Positions 8,010 through 15,842 of a stretch of DNA of 45,828 nt are shown in pieces. Source of the stretch: Malassezia furfur (lineage: Eukaryota). The DNA is taken from NCBI GenBank assembly GCA_052055015.1, contig JBQJIT010000037.1. One strand, given 5' to 3'. Under the pieces are notes generated by a model. It did not search any database, was not told where the DNA came from, and saw only the letters and a program-made list of their open reading frames with translations. Position 1 is the stretch's first letter. Each line of letters opens with the position of its first letter. Made by a program: the position numbers and the translations under genes.

Positions 8010-8696
8010 CTTCGAGGACGGGAAACCTATACAGACCAGAAAATAAAGGTCCTGGTCTTGCTTGCCAAGAGGGGGAGGACAAGCTATCGGGCTTGCCGCG
8101 ATAAATGTCGTAAGGTCCCCTGGGTCGCCGATTCCTCTGGCTCGTACACTGGGCCCAAGTGATTGGCGCGATTTCACCAGCACTGCAGCACCGCGGACCA
8201 GCGTGCAGCTAGTTTCCAAAAAATCTCCACATATTGCCGAGTTGACACGGTGCCTCGCTGGGCCGCGCGTAAACTTGGTACGTGCACGGGCACGGCCCGA
8301 GTGCGATTCGGGCGCGCCAGCACTGGTCGAACTTGCGCGACCACGAACATCAGCGCAAACTACAACACCACAAAGTGTTCATACTTGCTCAAATGCCATA
8401 TAAACCATCAATATTCCGGCATAATACAAACAGTGATACTAAATACAAAGCGTGATCAGAGCGTCGGGCAGTCACTAAAAGTAACTGCACCTATACCCTG
8501 TTGGCAACAGCCATCACAAAGAGAAAAATTGCTGAATCGTATAAAACGAGTCAGACGATGTGGTTCGTTTTGTTTGCGATAAGCAAAAGTCTACGTCTCG
8601 GTAGGTACCTCAGTGACCGTAGAGCCTGTCCATGCAGAAAGATGAGGATCCACCATGATGCACGCGCGCTCTATATACGTTTTGCACAAAATTCGC

Positions 8697-10125: not shown

Positions 10126-11181
10126 ATGACGATCGAAGTGCAGGCTCCGCCACCGTCGCCATCGGCGCCCGCGGCACCGCTGTCTGCTATCATTGACTCT
10201 GAGATTGAGATTGAATACGAAGGTCTTGGTGGTAACTACCCGCTGCATATCAATATGATTGCCGGATCGCTGGCGGGTATTACCGAACATGCTGTAATGT
10301 TCCCTGTGGATCTTGTTCGCGTACGTATACGCATAATCTGACTTTCGCAGACTCGTATGCAGGTCCTGACAGCGTCGCCCGCCGCGACGTACAGTGGCAT
10401 GACCGAGGCACTCACCCGGATCAGCTCTGTGGAAGGCTTCAAGGGTCTTTGGAAGGGTATTGCTTCGGTTATTCTCGGCGCCGGCCCTGCGCACGCGCTC
10501 TACTTTGGCACCTACGAGCTTGTCAAAGACCACACGGGTGGCAATCGAGAGGGATTGCAGCTGCTGAGCACGGGTGGGGCTGGTGCAGCCGCCACCATCG
10601 TGTCTGACGCATTCATGAACCCTTTTGATGGTGCGTCGCTCATTGCTTACCACAGTGATTAAGCAACGCATGCAACTGGAGGGCAATCCCTACACGTCGG
10701 TGATGAACTGCGCGCGTGATCTGTACAAGACCGAGGGGCTCCGTGCATTCTACGTCTCATACCCCACGACGCTGACTATGACCGTGCCTTTCACTGCGAT
10801 CCAATTCGCAACGTACGAATGGGCCAAGAAACTTTTCAACCCGACTGACTCCTACTCCCCTATGACGCACGTGGTTGCTGGTGGCTTTGCCGGCGCCACG
10901 GCGGCCGCGCTCACAACTCCTCTTGATGTGGCCAAGACCCTGCTGCAGACGCGTGGCTGCTCGCCGGATCCTGTGATCCGGAATACCACGAGCATGATGC
11001 AGGCGTTTAGGATCATCCAGCAGCGTGAGGGATACCGTGGCTTCATGCGCGGATTGACGCCGCGTATCTTTACCCACATGCCGTCGAATGCACTGTGCTG
11101 GCTGGTATGTTATACACGACTTACACCTAGTCCTACGAGAGCTTCCGCTTCATGCTGCGTGAGCAGAACTACATCGCTTGA
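10126..11181 (+). CDS. MRS3: Mitochondrial carrier, mitoferrin (Mrs3/Mrs4) type iron transporter
   Basis: Introns 10321-10350, 10631-10655 and 11105-11130. Motifs EIEYEGL...AGSLAGITEHAVMFPVD..TRMQ, GAGPAHALYF, MNPFDVIKQRMQ, AFYVSYPTTL, TTPLDVAKT. Confidence 0.9.
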
Positions 11182-11313: not shown

Positions 11314-13197
11314 TTAGTTACGACCCAGGAATTGGTAGATCACCAACGACACGAGACGCGACAAACTTTCGGGGTGGTGGACATAAGTGCCCATAATCAG
11401 CGAAATACTCACCGAGGCGAGCCAGAAGTCGCCGTATGGGACGCGTGGCAAAACACCCTTGCGGCGGCCTAGCGCCCAGTACGACTCGAGTGCCTTGGGC
11501 AGCACATAAGCGGACAGCTCACTGCGCCGACGCGGTTGCTCGACAAACAAGGCGAGGCAGGACAAGAAGCCAGGGATCATGTTCATCCGCCCGTCTTGCA
11601 GCATGTCGGAGATGCGCATAGCCGTCCTGGACTTGCTCAACCGCGGGCTATAGCGGATCGAGTCTGAAATTTCGTGGAAGACGCAGAAGCAGGACTTGAC
11701 AATCGCGATGTACACAGCCAGGAACGCCGACGAGCGCGCAGCACTAGAAAAGGAGCGCACCGATGCATTCACTGGGTCGCGCATGAACGTCTTAGGGCGC
11801 AAAAAGACCGTCGGGACAACGTAGAGGGTGAGATAGACCGGCATAATCCACTTCCAGCGGCCCACCAGGTTCGTCAGGAGGACACGGAAGTGGTTCGTAG
11901 AGTACGGGTGGGACAAGGAACAGGCGGGGAAGTGGCGCATGTCACCGCGATCAAAGTAGCGGTACATTTTGGCGATCATATCGCCCGAAACACCCTTAGG
12001 GTAGTACTTGTTCGGCGGAAGGTCTGGGTACTTGAGCGGGCTGGTGCTGATCGGTTCGGGCAGCTGGCCGCCAAAGAGCTCGACGAGCGTCCACGGGTTG
12101 GCACCAAGCGGGTCCTCTTGCGTGCAACCCACGAGCATGTCGAGCATGTTGCGCGGCAGGTCCGAGGCCTTGGTGATCCAGCGGCTGTACGACGGCGGCA
12201 ACAGGGTCGGGTCAGTGAGCCATGCCCAGATGATCTGCATGTTGGCAATGCCAAACACCAGCACGGATCCGTATGGAATGTCGATGTAACCGTGCGACCG
12301 CGCAAAGCGATACGAGCCTTCCAAGCCACGCACAAACAGCTGCGGGCCAAACGACTGCACCAGGCTCTTGCGTTCGACCAGGAGCGCGATCGACGAGACC
12401 GCACCACTAACGTAGGCATGCCAGTAGCGCACGCGTGGGTCATACGTAGACAGATGGCGCCGGTGTTGCTCCTTACCAGGTGACTTGTGGTGATGATGAT
12501 GGTGGTGATGGTGGTGATGCTTGTGCGACTTGTGGTGCTTACGCGACTTCATCGACATCGACAGACCGTCTTCTTCCTCCGACGGCTCTGGCACAGCGAG
12601 GTTGGGCTCCGTGCGGCTGCGTGCCTTTGAACCATGCGAGCTGCTGCGCTTGGGGAACGGCGTGAGAAGACGGAGCGCATTGTTCACAAACTTGAACAGG
12701 CCCGACCACAGGCCGAACATCAGCGCGAAGCGCACCGTGTCCTCGGCCAGGAACGACTGCTTGAACAAGTCCGAGCGGCCGCGCCGCGTGCGCAGCAATT
12801 TGATGAGCGCAAATAGATAGGTCAGGCAGCCACGCAGGCCGTACGAGATCATGAATGCGCGCGCGCCGGCCCGAAAGACGTGGACAATGAGGCGCTCCCA
12901 GTCGCTTGGAATGCGTGCCTCTTCGTCCTTGGGACGCCAGAGCTTGTTTTGGATGTTGCGGCGGACCTCGGAGGAGGGCTTCGTGGACATTTCATGAAGT
13001 GCACTGAAGCTGAGCGAACGCTTCAAGCTCTCCATCGTCTCAGAGAGGTTGGGCGTCGTCGCGCCCGACTGCAGCTCGCGCCATGCAGCGAGTTCGTCAT
13101 CGCTTTCGTTCACAAGCTCTTCCTGAAGCGTGGGGGTGGGAGGTAGCGACGTTAGTCGATCAGGAAAGGGCCGTTTCTTCTCCTTCTCCTCGCTCAT
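11314..13197 (-). CDS. TMEM135/PXMP4-like integral membrane protein
   Basis: Single 627-aa ORF with family-like segments RFALMFG..SGLFK, AYVSGAVSSIALL, QIIWAW..P.LLPPSY, SAARSSAFLA and EQPRRRSELSAYVLPKALES. Confidence 0.75.
   Translation of the reverse strand: MSEEKEKKRPFPDRLTSLPPTPTLQEELVNESDDELAAWRELQSGATTPNLSETMESLKRSLSFSALHEMSTKPSSEVRRNIQNKLWRPKDEEARIPSDWERLIVHVFRAGARAFMISYGLRGCLTYLFALIKLLRTRRGRSDLFKQSFLAEDTVRFALMFGLWSGLFKFVNNALRLLTPFPKRSSSHGSKARSRTEPNLAVPEPSEEEDGLSMSMKSRKHHKSHKHHHHHHHHHHHKSPGKEQHRRHLSTYDPRVRYWHAYVSGAVSSIALLVERKSLVQSFGPQLFVRGLEGSYRFARSHGYIDIPYGSVLVFGIANMQIIWAWLTDPTLLPPSYSRWITKASDLPRNMLDMLVGCTQEDPLGANPWTLVELFGGQLPEPISTSPLKYPDLPPNKYYPKGVSGDMIAKMYRYFDRGDMRHFPACSLSHPYSTNHFRVLLTNLVGRWKWIMPVYLTLYVVPTVFLRPKTFMRDPVNASVRSFSSAARSSAFLAVYIAIVKSCFCVFHEISDSIRYSPRLSKSRTAMRISDMLQDGRMNMIPGFLSCLALFVEQPRRRSELSAYVLPKALESYWALGRRKGVLPRVPYGDFWLASVSISLIMGTYVHHPESLSRLVSLVIYQFLGRN
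12487..12519 (-). repeat. CAY trinucleotide tract encoding poly-His (11 His)
   Basis: Plus strand gtggtgatgatgatggtggtgatggtggtgatg, inside the TMEM135-like ORF. Confidence 0.9.
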
Positions 13198-13358
13198 GGT
13201 CGGTTGCTAGACAGGGGCGGTCCGGGCGCAGCGAATTCCGCCCCAAAACATTCTCCGGTCGGGTGTAGCCGCCGGCGATGCAGCACGTGGAATCTCGATT
13301 ACGCCACGCCGTGGGCGCAACGTCCTGCTTACGTAAGCAGGGACGAGCGGAAAAGAAA

Positions 13359-13585
13359 GGCAGACGGTACCCCGGAGGGTACAGTCTGCCCGATCCAAAG
13401 ATTTCAACGTACTGCCACCCTTAGGGCAGCAGCGAGGGGCAAATCCTCCTGTATGGACAAAAGGGTCGCCGTGCAATGGGAGCATTCACCCCTCCCGCAC
13501 CACATGCGTGAGCGTGTTGCGGAACGTCAAGGTCTGTCGTGTTAGATCCGTCCTAATAGGTCGATTTTCATATACGTACAAGTAT
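13359..13585 (-). ncRNA. U1: U1 spliceosomal snRNA gene containing a spliceosomal intron (exon 1 13585-13580, intron 13579-13534, exon 2 13533-~13359; ~181 nt mature)
   Basis: The spliced 5' end reads AUACUU|ACCU. Downstream come helix H (UUGACGU/ACGUUGA), SL-I with a 10-nt loop GCUCACGCAU, SL-II with the U1A motif AUUGCAC, SL-III, an Sm-like site AAUCUUUGG and a GC-rich SL-IV with a cUCCGg loop, followed by a T-rich tract. The 3' end is inferred from SL-IV. Confidence 0.9.
13534..13579 (-). other. 46-nt spliceosomal intron in the U1 snRNA gene
   Basis: Minus strand GTACGTatatgaaaatcgacctattaggacggatCTAACacgaCAG. It has the same donor, branch and acceptor consensus as the mRNA introns in this window. 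Confidence 0.88.
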
Positions 13586-13615
13586 GAGAAACTCGTAGAT
13601 GCGGAGGGCGGCCCC

Positions 13616-13622
13616 TTTTATA
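13616..13622 (-). promoter_or_regulatory. TATA box of the U1 snRNA gene
   Basis: TATAAAA on the minus strand at -37 to -31 relative to the AUACUU start at 13585. Confidence 0.7.
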
Positions 13623-13746
13623 TTTTTTGAGCCCCGCTGCGGCGGCTGCACATTGGCCAGCTCCACCGGCCCAGCAAAAATGGCCGCTACAGGGCTACAT
13701 TAATTCCTCGAATCTTTTTGGATGGCGACGCGGCGCATATGGACCA

Positions 13747-14695
13747 CTATGGCGAATGATGCAGGGCCTCGGTCGCCTCGTTGCTCGTCTTGGTAATCGC
13801 CTCTTGAAGCGACTTGGGGCAGCTCTCGACCAGGCTCGAGAGGTTCGGCAGAATGCGTGAGAGGAAGAACTGCTGCGCGACTTGCGCTCCCTGCGTGTGA
13901 GCCAATGCGTGGACGTACCCTGTAGTGATAGATCGCACCCATCACCGCCTCGACACACGCGCCGCGCACCTTAAAGAGGCCGGTCTCTTGCGTCCCTGTC
14001 GCAGGATCGACACGCTGGTGTCAGCTGGGCATGAGTACATACAATCGTCGGGTGCCAGCGCATGACACGCTCGAGCTGCAGAGAGCGCCCGACATGGTCG
14101 CCAAGCGTCTGCGTCCGGAGGAGGTTGTCCACGCCCTGCGGCGACGAGAGGATATTTTGCAGGAACCGGATTTCGGCCTCGGGAAGCGATTCTGCGCGGC
14201 CCGCCTTGGCGAGCACATCGAACAGATAGAGGGAGAGGTAGGTTTTCAGAGCGCGCCGGCCTGGGTGTGAGAGTGTGCAAACGTACCGAGGAAGGCGAGG
14301 CGGCGGTTATGGCCTTGCATGCCGTACATCCAGCTTTCATGCGTGAGCGCAGTGACGGCCAGCGCCGCGTTGTCGCCAAGGAGCGCGTGCTGGTCGCCCG
14401 ACAGCGAGCGGTACGAAGAAAATTGCTCGCTGTTGAGGAATGCCAGCATGTCCGCAGGCTTCAAGTCGCTGCCGAGCGCACCGGACGAAGGGTGCACCGA
14501 CTGCTGCTGCGTATGTGCCGTGGGATGTGCGCTGGGCGCGGCGTTGTGCGCAATGGCGGTGGTGTGCAGGCCACAGGCGCGCAGTAAGAGTGGCTGCGGC
14601 GCGCGCGCAAAAGTTGCAGTGCGCGCGCTACCGACGAGGCGTGCGCGCGCCACGATACGTGTTCCTGTCCGGAAGGATGCGGTGCCCATGTTCAT
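13747..14695 (-). CDS. MRPL15: Mitochondrial ribosomal protein mL57 (MrpL15), RNase III-like fold
   Basis: Introns 14261-14286, 14015-14042 and 13891-13918. Presequence-like N-terminus; ALTHESW..G..GHNRRLAFLGRRAL...GLFKVRGACVEAVMGAIYH..GAQVAQQFF. Start is at 14695 or 14689. Confidence 0.8.
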
Positions 14696-14858
14696 CGTTG
14701 CACACGCGCGCTACTCCGCAAGGCACAGCGACGAGGAAAGTGGGTCGTGGAAGCCGGGTGGACGAAGTCTTCGCAGATGGGGAATTAAGCATACATCCAC
14801 GCCGCCGCGAAGCGAAAGTTCGATTTTCGCGCGTACGACGCCTTGGGTTTTGTCAACG

Positions 14859-15842
14859 ATGTCTGTGGCGGAACCGTATGTGGCTGCGACTAACGCCAGA
14901 CTTGCTCCTGCTGCTCCCAAGGCCGCCAACTGGGCGGATGATGACACTGAGGATGGCGCTTGTACGTTTCGCGCGACTCACGCAGCTTCGAGCTCGCCGC
15001 GCGTCGAAGTGCGCGACGAAGGCAACGGTGTGCAGACCGTGATTGAATACCGCACCAACGCGGATGGCAAGCCTGTCAAGGTGACGCGCCGCATCAAGCG
15101 GACGCTCGTGTCTACGCGCGTGAACCACGACGTGGCCGAGCGCAAGCAGTGGGCCAAGTTTGGTCTCGAGAAAAACTCCGCCGCCGGCCCGCACGGCGGC
15201 ACCACCTCGATCGGTGCCAATGTGCAGGTCAAGCTTACCGCGGGTGGCACCAAGGAGCCCGAGCAGGACCCGACAGATGCGATGCGCGAGAAGCTCGCGA
15301 ACAAGCGCGTCCAGTGCCGTCTATGCAAGGGCGACCACTACACGGCGCGCTGTCCGTACCGCGACACACTCGAGGCGATCCCCGGCGCGGGTGGCGAGAC
15401 GCCCGAGGGCGAGGTCGCCAAGGCGGCGCTGCAGGCCGGCGACCCTGCGGCCGCCGCCAAGATCAACCCGGCCGCAAGCCAGGCCCGTGCTGGGCTGGCG
15501 CCGGGCAAATACGTCCCGCCGAGCCTGCGTGCCGGCGCGGTGCCGACGGTGATGGGCAGCGGTGCGCCGCACCGCGACGACTCGTCGACGCTGCGTGTGA
15601 CGAACCTGAGCGAGGACGTCGAGGAGGACGACCTGCGCGACCTCTTCCGCCGTTACGGCCGTGTGACGCGGATCTACCTGGGCCGCGACCGCGAGACGGG
15701 TGCGTGCAAGGGCTTCGCCTATGTCAACTTTGAGGACCGTGCGTCGGCGGACCTGGCGCGGCAAAAGCTGGACGGCTTCCCGTACAGCAACCTGATCCTC
15801 AGCTGCCAGTGGTCGCAGCCGCGTGGGGAGCGTCCTTCGTAG
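14859..15842 (+). CDS. TIF35: Translation initiation factor eIF3 subunit g
   Basis: NWADDD; VAERKQWAKFG; Zn knuckle CRLCKGDHYTARCPY; KYVPPSLR; C-terminal RRM (TLRVTNLSED, KGFAYVNF). Two probable 24-nt in-frame introns at 14876-14899 and 14962-14985. Confidence 0.95.
   Translation: MSVAEPYVAATNARLAPAAPKAANWADDDTEDGACTFRATHAASSSPRVEVRDEGNGVQTVIEYRTNADGKPVKVTRRIKRTLVSTRVNHDVAERKQWAKFGLEKNSAAGPHGGTTSIGANVQVKLTAGGTKEPEQDPTDAMREKLANKRVQCRLCKGDHYTARCPYRDTLEAIPGAGGETPEGEVAKAALQAGDPAAAAKINPAASQARAGLAPGKYVPPSLRAGAVPTVMGSGAPHRDDSSTLRVTNLSEDVEEDDLRDLFRRYGRVTRIYLGRDRETGACKGFAYVNFEDRASADLARQKLDGFPYSNLILSCQWSQPRGERPS

Follow-up and report, generated by a model that had tools for sequence, protein, structure and literature searches.

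Can the RNA that is the first to recognize introns depend on the removal of an intron for its own formation? This question is raised by a locus on the minus strand of a contig assigned to Malassezia furfur (GenBank assembly GCA_052055015.1, contig JBQJIT010000037.1; the whole stretch of 45,828 nucleotides (nt) that was analysed is referred to as the window), where a gene for the U1 small nuclear RNA (snRNA) appears with an mRNA-type intron inside the sequence that pairs with 5' splice sites: The recognition sequence of U1 would thus itself be assembled by splicing, six bases from the cap, which raises the more general question whether the biogenesis of a core machine can require that very machine. 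According to our analysis, the locus is very probably a working U1 snRNA gene of RNA polymerase II type from a Malassezia, the transcript of which must be spliced; the split between nucleotides U6 and A7 of the mature RNA (U6|A7) is, as judged from sequence comparison, a conserved feature and not an accident. The core claim of an earlier prediction made from the DNA letters (the original prediction), i.e. a U1 gene with a recognition sequence split by an mRNA-type intron after a 6-nt exon, is supported by the match to the Rfam model, the fold, the promoter spacing and the splice signals, and foremost by 35 metagenome U1 genes that are split at the same place, with intron interiors that have diverged, exons that are conserved and RNA helices that show compensatory changes.

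Gene anatomy and splice signals

A TATA box (TATAAAA, 13622-13616; all coordinates refer to the minus strand of the window unless stated otherwise), the promoter role of which is proposed from its sequence and spacing, is followed after a gap of 30 nt by ATACTT (13585-13580); the first T of the box lies 37 nt upstream of the A of ATACTT. This hexanucleotide corresponds to nucleotides 1-6 of mature U1, constitutes the 6-nt exon 1 and is directly continued by a 46-nt stretch of spliceosomal type (13579-13534) with the boundaries GT..CTAAC..CAG. The 5' splice site GTACGTAT (13579-13572; first six bases GTACGT) marks the start of this intron; the branch site CTAAC (13545-13541, branch A at 13542) leaves 8 nt between the branch A and the intron 3' end, which is formed by the 3' splice site CAG (13536-13534). 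Exon 2 (13533 to approximately 13359, 175 nt; delimited by the Rfam U1 model RF00003, the fold and covariation) opens with ACCTTGACG and represents U1 from nucleotide 7 onward (ACCU...). ATACTT and ACCT (13533-13530) are therefore interrupted in the genomic sequence and joined only upon removal of 13579-13534. Indeed, in-silico splicing (13585-13580 joined to 13533-13359) yielded a 181-nt RNA starting with AUACUUACCU and, thus, bore out the claim that excision of the 46 nt restores the U1 5' end; the positions assigned in the original prediction to TATAAAA, ATACTT, the GTACGT/CTAAC/CAG stretch and the U1 body were right to the base. The combined pattern (ATACTT+GTNNGT, gap, AG+ACCT, gap, ATTGCAC) occurred once in the window and in none of 100 window shuffles.

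The spacing of the promoter was compared with that of a second snRNA gene of the window, a U4 gene located 5 kb away on the same strand (8511-8643; RF00015 48.9 bits at a threshold of 46, full model, no intron). The U4 gene possesses a TATATA element 34 nt ahead of its Rfam-defined first base, preceded by CCTC; the U1 TATA box is preceded by TCTC and located 37 nt from ATACTT, but 89 nt from ACCT. This spacing matches a start at ATACTT and not at ACCT and, therefore, speaks for a 6-nt first exon; the A of ATACTT would accordingly be the transcription start and cap site, a placement that depends on the TATA spacing.

To compare the splice signals with those of the host, the window was searched for long open frames linked by short GT..YTRAY..YAG stretches. 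The 30-nt stretch 10321-10350 (plus strand) in a mitochondrial-carrier gene is a real mRNA intron, since the Mito_carr profile continues across its flanks (Pfam: the upstream frame ends at profile position 30, the downstream frame starts at 31). Its 5' splice site consists of the same 8 bases as that of the U1 intron, and its CTGAC is followed by 9 nt to the CAG end. As this example illustrates, host introns can be very short.

U1 identity and predicted fold

The whole RF00003 model (positions 1-166) aligned to 13539-13359 with 38.5 bits (E-value 2.2e-8 on a 401-nt stretch and 2.5e-6 on the whole window). The model positions 1-6 (AUACUU) were forced onto the intron 3' end CGACAG, whereas the alignment from ACCU onward was normal; a part of the score is therefore lost because the intron displaces the first six model positions. 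Besides 13539-13359, no U1-like match to RF00003 was found within the 45.8-kb window at E <= 0.1. The RF00003 gathering score, a curated cut-off that does not stand for any biological feature, amounts to 69.5 bits; in consequence, a default Rfam scan omits the U1 locus and reported U4 alone for the window. The warning that the gene would be easily missed in standard annotation has thus come true, and the U1 covariance-model match, on the existence of which the original prediction had made itself dependent, was found over the full model length, albeit below this threshold.

Minimum-free-energy folding of the in-silico spliced RNA resulted in a free 9-nt 5' end, helix H, the stem-loops (SL) SL-I to SL-III, an unpaired AAUCUUUGG and SL-IV, with an energy of −84.6 kcal/mol compared to −60.5 ± 4.4 kcal/mol in 200 mononucleotide shuffles (z = −5.4). 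The four-way junction (13404..13530), which is supported by fold and covariation, is closed by helix H (7 bp, 13530-13524 paired with 13410-13404) and comprises SL-I (13522-13495), SL-II (13494-13434, with an 11-bp lower stem of 13494-13484 and 13444-13434) and SL-III (13433-13411). The SL-I loop CUCACGCAUG, at the U1-70K-type position, is partly identical to the GAUCAaGAAG of the model and may bind the corresponding protein; the SL-II loop contains AUUGCAC (13477-13471), by its sequence a U1A-type site, which was invariant in the alignment A2 (the metagenome scan pattern described below itself demanded ATTGCAC in the loci). The Sm-site-like single strand AAUCUUUGG (13403-13395) is positioned between helix H and SL-IV and aligned to AAUUUgUGg of the model; the 3'-terminal hairpin SL-IV (13390-13359; 7 + 6 bp) emerged from both the fold and the RF00003 alignment. 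Helix H, SL-I, the 11-bp SL-II with AUUGCAC, SL-III, the Sm-like site and SL-IV as originally proposed were reproduced exactly. The predicted RNA shares the mature 5' end, the four-way junction, the AUUGCAC loop, the Sm site and the 3' hairpin with canonical intronless U1 (RF00003); in contrast, the canonical genes read ATACTTACCT unbroken, while the Malassezia gene would need splicing to form this sequence and scores below the Rfam threshold.

The upper part of SL-II (13446-13482) includes approximately 21 extra nt right after AUUGCAC, which appear as an insertion in the Rfam alignment and could form a small additional hairpin in the Malassezia-type loop. By eye, similar CATTGCACGGCGAC... extensions are printed for Rhodotorula hasegawae, Sporobolomyces roseus and Puccinia graminis in a 2008 survey of fungal U1 genes (PMC2396436; here and below, statements on this survey refer to the portions of it that were consulted).

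The same bond is split in 35 metagenome U1 genes

A single scan of metagenome contigs (ATACTT+GTNNGT, 22-52 nt, AG+ACCT, 40-70 nt, ATTGCAC) yielded 42 loci, 35 of which were recognized by inspection as U1 genes split at U6|A7; the remaining seven were not U1-like. When grouped by >= 90% identity across the first 125 nt of exon 2, the 35 split genes fell into 19 clusters. A comparison of the intron position across species had been recommended along with the original prediction; the 35 genes, retrieved with a pattern that demanded an intron at this site, are all split at the U6|A7 bond. ATACTT abutting GT and AG abutting ACCT were present in 35/35 U1-like loci, the intron length ranged from 42 to 59 nt, and every 3' end was CAG or TAG. 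A YTRAY branch motif with 8-12 nt after the branch A was found in 34 of these loci (L026 has CTAAA instead).

RF00003 was run on 40 of the 42 loci, with L037 and L040 left out as duplicates of L015 and L007, respectively, over the gene. A match at E <= 0.01 was obtained for 30/40 loci (24.7-52.5 bits, all under the threshold of 69.5). The ten loci missed by the model comprised all seven non-U1 loci and, in addition, L005, L006 and L034; the exon 2 of L006 is 99% identical to that of L016, for which a match was obtained. L034 displays, besides the U6|A7 intron, an apparent second intron of 58 nt (GTAAGA...ACTAAC...CAG; L034 562-619, plus strand) that interrupts the 3' strand of SL-III and would account for the failure of the Rfam model. 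All 31 detected U1 genes (window and 30 loci) fell below the Rfam threshold; such genes are therefore likely absent from fungal annotations, those of the skin yeast Malassezia included, or truncated there at ACCU.

Two of the clusters are Malassezia-like (L004 = L008 = L011; L006/L016) and encode a U1 of the type found in the window, with AAUCUUUAG at the Sm site. In the alignment A1 (window, L004, L006 and L016), exon 1 and GTACGTA were invariant, and the TATA box was likewise located 37 nt away in L004, L006 and L016. Exon 2 identity among these three lineages was 82-86%, compared to 17-49% for the intron interior and a similar 43-49% for the upstream flank; the intron length varied from 42 to 46 nt. 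A drifting intron interior combined with conserved exons and signals is the signature of a spliced intron within a gene under selection.

An alignment was calculated for 28 distinct exon-2 sequences (window and 27 loci; six duplicates, the truncated L021, L034 and the seven non-U1 loci were left out). RNAalifold placed 31 consensus pairs in helix H, SL-I, SL-II and SL-III; compensatory changes, i.e. changes on both sides with pairing kept, were present in 29 of these. Compensatory changes in the U1 helices indicate working U1 RNAs, not decaying copies.

A second, larger U1 group

The remaining 17 clusters encode a shorter U1 with the Sm site starting approximately 111 nt into exon 2 and contain C-rich introns of 51-59 nt. 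By eye, these genes share ACCTTCTTGCGAT, CTGCATTGCACAGCGCGG, CTCCTTCGGGGGC and GGGGCAATTTTTGCTGGACTGC with the U1 genes of Stagonospora nodorum, Aspergillus and Neurospora printed in PMC2396436. On the basis of these common strings, the second group probably derives from Pezizomycotina and perhaps from Dothideomycetes, a by-eye likeness to printed sequences. No convincing coding open reading frame (ORF) was found in the 400-nt flanks of the metagenome loci. Since the printed U1 genes of the named species are uninterrupted, intron-bearing and intronless U1 genes would occur among similar fungi and possibly within one genome.

The second-group introns (L001-L041) have in common a C-rich tract and, between this tract and the branch site, a CCCCTACNTTT-like motif of loose conservation. 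These shared features suggest either that the introns descend from a common ancestor or that their interior is under constraint. Approximately 10-60 nt past the Sm site or 3' hairpin, the second group shows a conserved TTTTCATTGA, a short hairpin and then TTGAGGAAGA, an element that may represent a 3'-end formation signal. By eye, the 3'-terminal hairpin itself is seemingly missing in several members, e.g. L012, L029, L036, L020, L024 and L033.

Proposed maturation of the split transcript

The 5' end of U1 acts by base pairing with 5' splice sites. Based on the gene anatomy, transcription of the Malassezia gene would start at the A of AUACUU, approximately 37 nt beyond the first base of the TATA box, and give rise to a capped precursor with a 6-nt exon 1, a 46-nt mRNA-type intron (GUACGUAU...CUAAC-8 nt-CAG) and a 175-nt exon 2. 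The major spliceosome would excise the intron and join U6 to A7, by which the invariant single-stranded 5' end AUACUUACCU that pairs with 5' splice sites would be created; the remainder would be an ordinary basidiomycete-type U1 with helix H, SL-I to SL-III, Sm site and SL-IV. Recognition of the 5' splice site of the precursor would proceed through the intron side, GUACGUAU, where 7 of the 8 positions (all but +4 of +1 to +8) can pair to U1 (the range across all 36 genes is 4-7 of 8), and probably with the aid of the cap-binding complex.

Because the intron cuts the recognition sequence, the unspliced RNA could not do the job of U1; in consequence, new U1 would be formed only in cells that already hold working spliceosomes, U1 included. 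We infer this dependence on pre-existing U1, like the splicing step itself, from the arrangement of the gene. If the locus is the sole U1 gene, the need of old U1 for new U1 constitutes a positive dependency; a use of it for regulatory control is speculation.

Points against the proposal and alternative explanations

Several points weigh against a working U1 gene whose product is completed by splicing. The RF00003 score of 38.5 bits stays below the gathering threshold of 69.5, and the putative Sm site AAUCUUUGG has a C within its U run. The exon side (CUU) of the precursor 5' splice site is without pairing to U1, and a capped first exon of 6 nt is very short for the exon-binding surfaces of the spliceosome. 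Dothideomycete-like fungi, to which the second U1 group bears a by-eye likeness, are known with an intronless U1, e.g. Stagonospora nodorum according to the 2008 listing (PMC2396436). Finally, the metagenome scan demanded the intron and, thus, gives no measure of how common intronless U1 is.

Among the alternative explanations, the best survivor is that the intron-bearing locus represents a redundant, minor or silent paralogue, with the working U1 transcribed from an intronless gene elsewhere and without any self-dependence. Our U1 search covered the 45.8-kb window, which leaves room for such an arrangement; the intronless state of U1 that is the rule in most printed fungal sets and the several U1 copies found in many fungi (PMC2396436) speak for it. 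A silent copy, however, would not show the compensatory helix changes described above, and the preservation of exon 1, splice sites, branch site, TATA spacing and 82-86% exon identity in three Malassezia-type lineages, against 17-49% in the intron interior, is not what such a copy would be expected to display. The window contains one U1-like match only, and a single U1 is listed for Malassezia globosa in the supplement of the 2008 survey (PMC2396436), the listing leaving its kind, split or intronless, unspecified. We therefore regard a redundant or silent paralogue as unlikely.

Far less credible is a retention of the 46 nt, in which case the RNA would start near ACCU with a truncated 5' end or keep the insertion. 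Splicing is deduced here from the sequence, and the Rfam model aligns the U1 body without exon 1, which would suit a truncated RNA; a U1 without AUACUU, however, is deprived of the greater part of its pairing region for 5' splice sites, and the distance from the TATA box agrees with a start at ATACTT rather than at ACCT. Furthermore, neither a truncated nor an insertion-bearing RNA would account for the maintenance of ATACTT|GT and AG|ACCT in 35/35 loci or for the branch motif that 34 of them carry at a distance of 8-12 nt. That splice-like motifs came to lie ahead of a U1 body by chance, an explanation with no argument but the shortness of the motifs, is effectively refuted by the comparative data, in which 35 of the 42 scan matches were U1 genes; the pattern was absent from all window shuffles, and by our own arithmetic the probability of ATACTTGT within approximately 80 nt, AG abutting ACCT and CTAAC within approximately 10 nt is approximately 1e-6.

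Relation to published introns in small RNAs

Takahashi, Tani and Ohshima (1996, J Biochem 120:677) reportedly described a spliceosomal intron in the U1 gene of the basidiomycete R. hasegawae. The gene of this yeast (= Erythrobasidium hasegawianum; D63681.1) is printed in PMC2396436 as ...CTTC ATACTTA GTTAGT ... TACTAAC ... TTTCCAG CCTGCAG... and resembles the Malassezia gene in that a GT...TACTAAC...AG intron interrupts the sequence recognizing 5' splice sites a few nt after the cap site, and, by eye, in a basidiomycete-type body (CATTGCACGGCGAC, long SL-II). According to our own reading of the printed gene, however, exon 1 is the 7-nt ATACTTA and exon 2 begins with CCTG, since the only split that restores AUACUUACCUG falls after nucleotide 7; the R. 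hasegawae intron would thus be located at A7|C8, whereas the window and all 35 metagenome loci are split at U6|A7, one bond upstream. The precedent cited in the original prediction therefore holds as far as a published U1 intron exists, but not with respect to the same bond. The two introns differ further in length (approximately 64 nt by our own count in R. hasegawae versus 46 nt here), and the species belong to different subphyla (Pucciniomycotina versus Ustilaginomycotina).

The U1 genes of S. roseus and P. graminis, which are also members of the Pucciniomycotina, are printed without intron in PMC2396436, as are those of Aspergillus, Neurospora, Magnaporthe, Sclerotinia and Stagonospora (Supplementary Data 1 of that survey). 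A hidden intron of approximately 48 nt was considered for the U1 of A. fumigatus on account of 132-nt cDNAs versus genomic spans of 180 and 179 nt (PMC2377427, Table 3) and rejected: the consulted portions of PMC2377427 make no mention of an intron, and the U1 genes of A. nidulans, A. niger and A. terreus are uninterrupted (PMC2396436). The 180- and 179-nt spans are most likely due to padding.

Among other spliceosomal RNAs, mRNA-type introns have been documented in U6 genes, both of Schizosaccharomyces pombe and of numerous further fungi (2018 U6 review PMC5855946, which refers to Tani & Ohshima 1989, 1991, and Canzler et al. 2016), and have also been reported for the U2 and U5 genes of R. 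hasegawae. These cases have in common with the split U1 a spliceosomal intron in a critical conserved stretch and a splicing machinery that processes its own part, and they are usually explained by reverse splicing. U6, however, is an RNA polymerase III transcript situated at the catalytic core, whereas U1 leaves the spliceosome before catalysis; as stated in the consulted part of PMC5855946, U1 departs before the active site forms, which makes the reverse-splicing explanation less obvious for a U1 intron, as closeness to that site does not account for it. The only U1 intron referred to in the same part is that of Takahashi et al. 1996. A further parallel are the introns of fungal U3 small nucleolar RNA genes (PMC5832005): these encode likewise a small structured RNA polymerase II transcript with a TATA promoter and a spliceosomal intron near the 5' functional region, and the introns are widespread; the RNA and its function are different, though, and U1 is not among the genes listed in the consulted portion of that paper.

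A full-text literature search, with most subscription journals outside its reach, retrieved no paper that describes a U1 intron in Malassezia or the widespread occurrence of such an intron; R. hasegawae is the only species named for a U1 intron in the texts searched. Compared with the literature so covered, both the insertion one bond off the published case and the splitting of the same bond in many fungal lineages may not be in print.

Implications

In its widest form, the proposal is that the U6|A7 intron constitutes a conserved feature of Malassezia and of at least 17 clusters of the second type, one bond off the only published U1 intron, and that it perhaps resides in the sole, and hence self-dependent, U1 gene of Malassezia; taken together, we consider this a tentative proposition, possible rather than probable. 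If true, it would imply either a very old intron that was lost many times or a hot spot at which introns repeatedly enter the very RNA to which their own 5' ends pair. If the gene is the sole source of U1 in the compact Malassezia genome, U1 production would be obligatorily self-dependent, a heritable bootstrapping loop that could set U1 levels. The split gene is also a natural test of the shortest first exon tolerated by the spliceosome, and it bears on the entry of introns into non-coding RNAs: an intron at this site would be awkward for the idea of reverse splicing at the active site, given the departure of U1 before catalysis (PMC5855946).

Neighbouring genes and other features of the window

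The window has a G+C content of 62%. Among named organisms, the best match to the ORF next to the U1 gene (11317-13197) comes from Malassezia yamatoensis (69% identity), with other Malassezia next and Ustilaginomycotina after these; the host is accordingly a Malassezia. On the other side, a gene on the same strand as U1 (13703-14306) ends approximately 80 nt before the U1 TATA box; it contains a 28-nt candidate intron (14015-14042, GTATGT...CTGAC..CAG) and exhibits a weak Ribonuclease-III-like match in its second part. Divergent from this gene, an intronless ORF on the plus strand (14319-15839) encodes translation initiation factor 3 subunit G, with eIF3g and RRM domains. Beyond the U1 3' hairpin, at a distance of 18 nt from it and ahead of the ATG of the next gene (13197), a perfect 18-nt palindrome, CCTGCTTACGTAAGCAGG, is positioned at 13324-13341; it could represent a hairpin for 3'-end processing or a binding site of the bZIP type (TTACGTAA).

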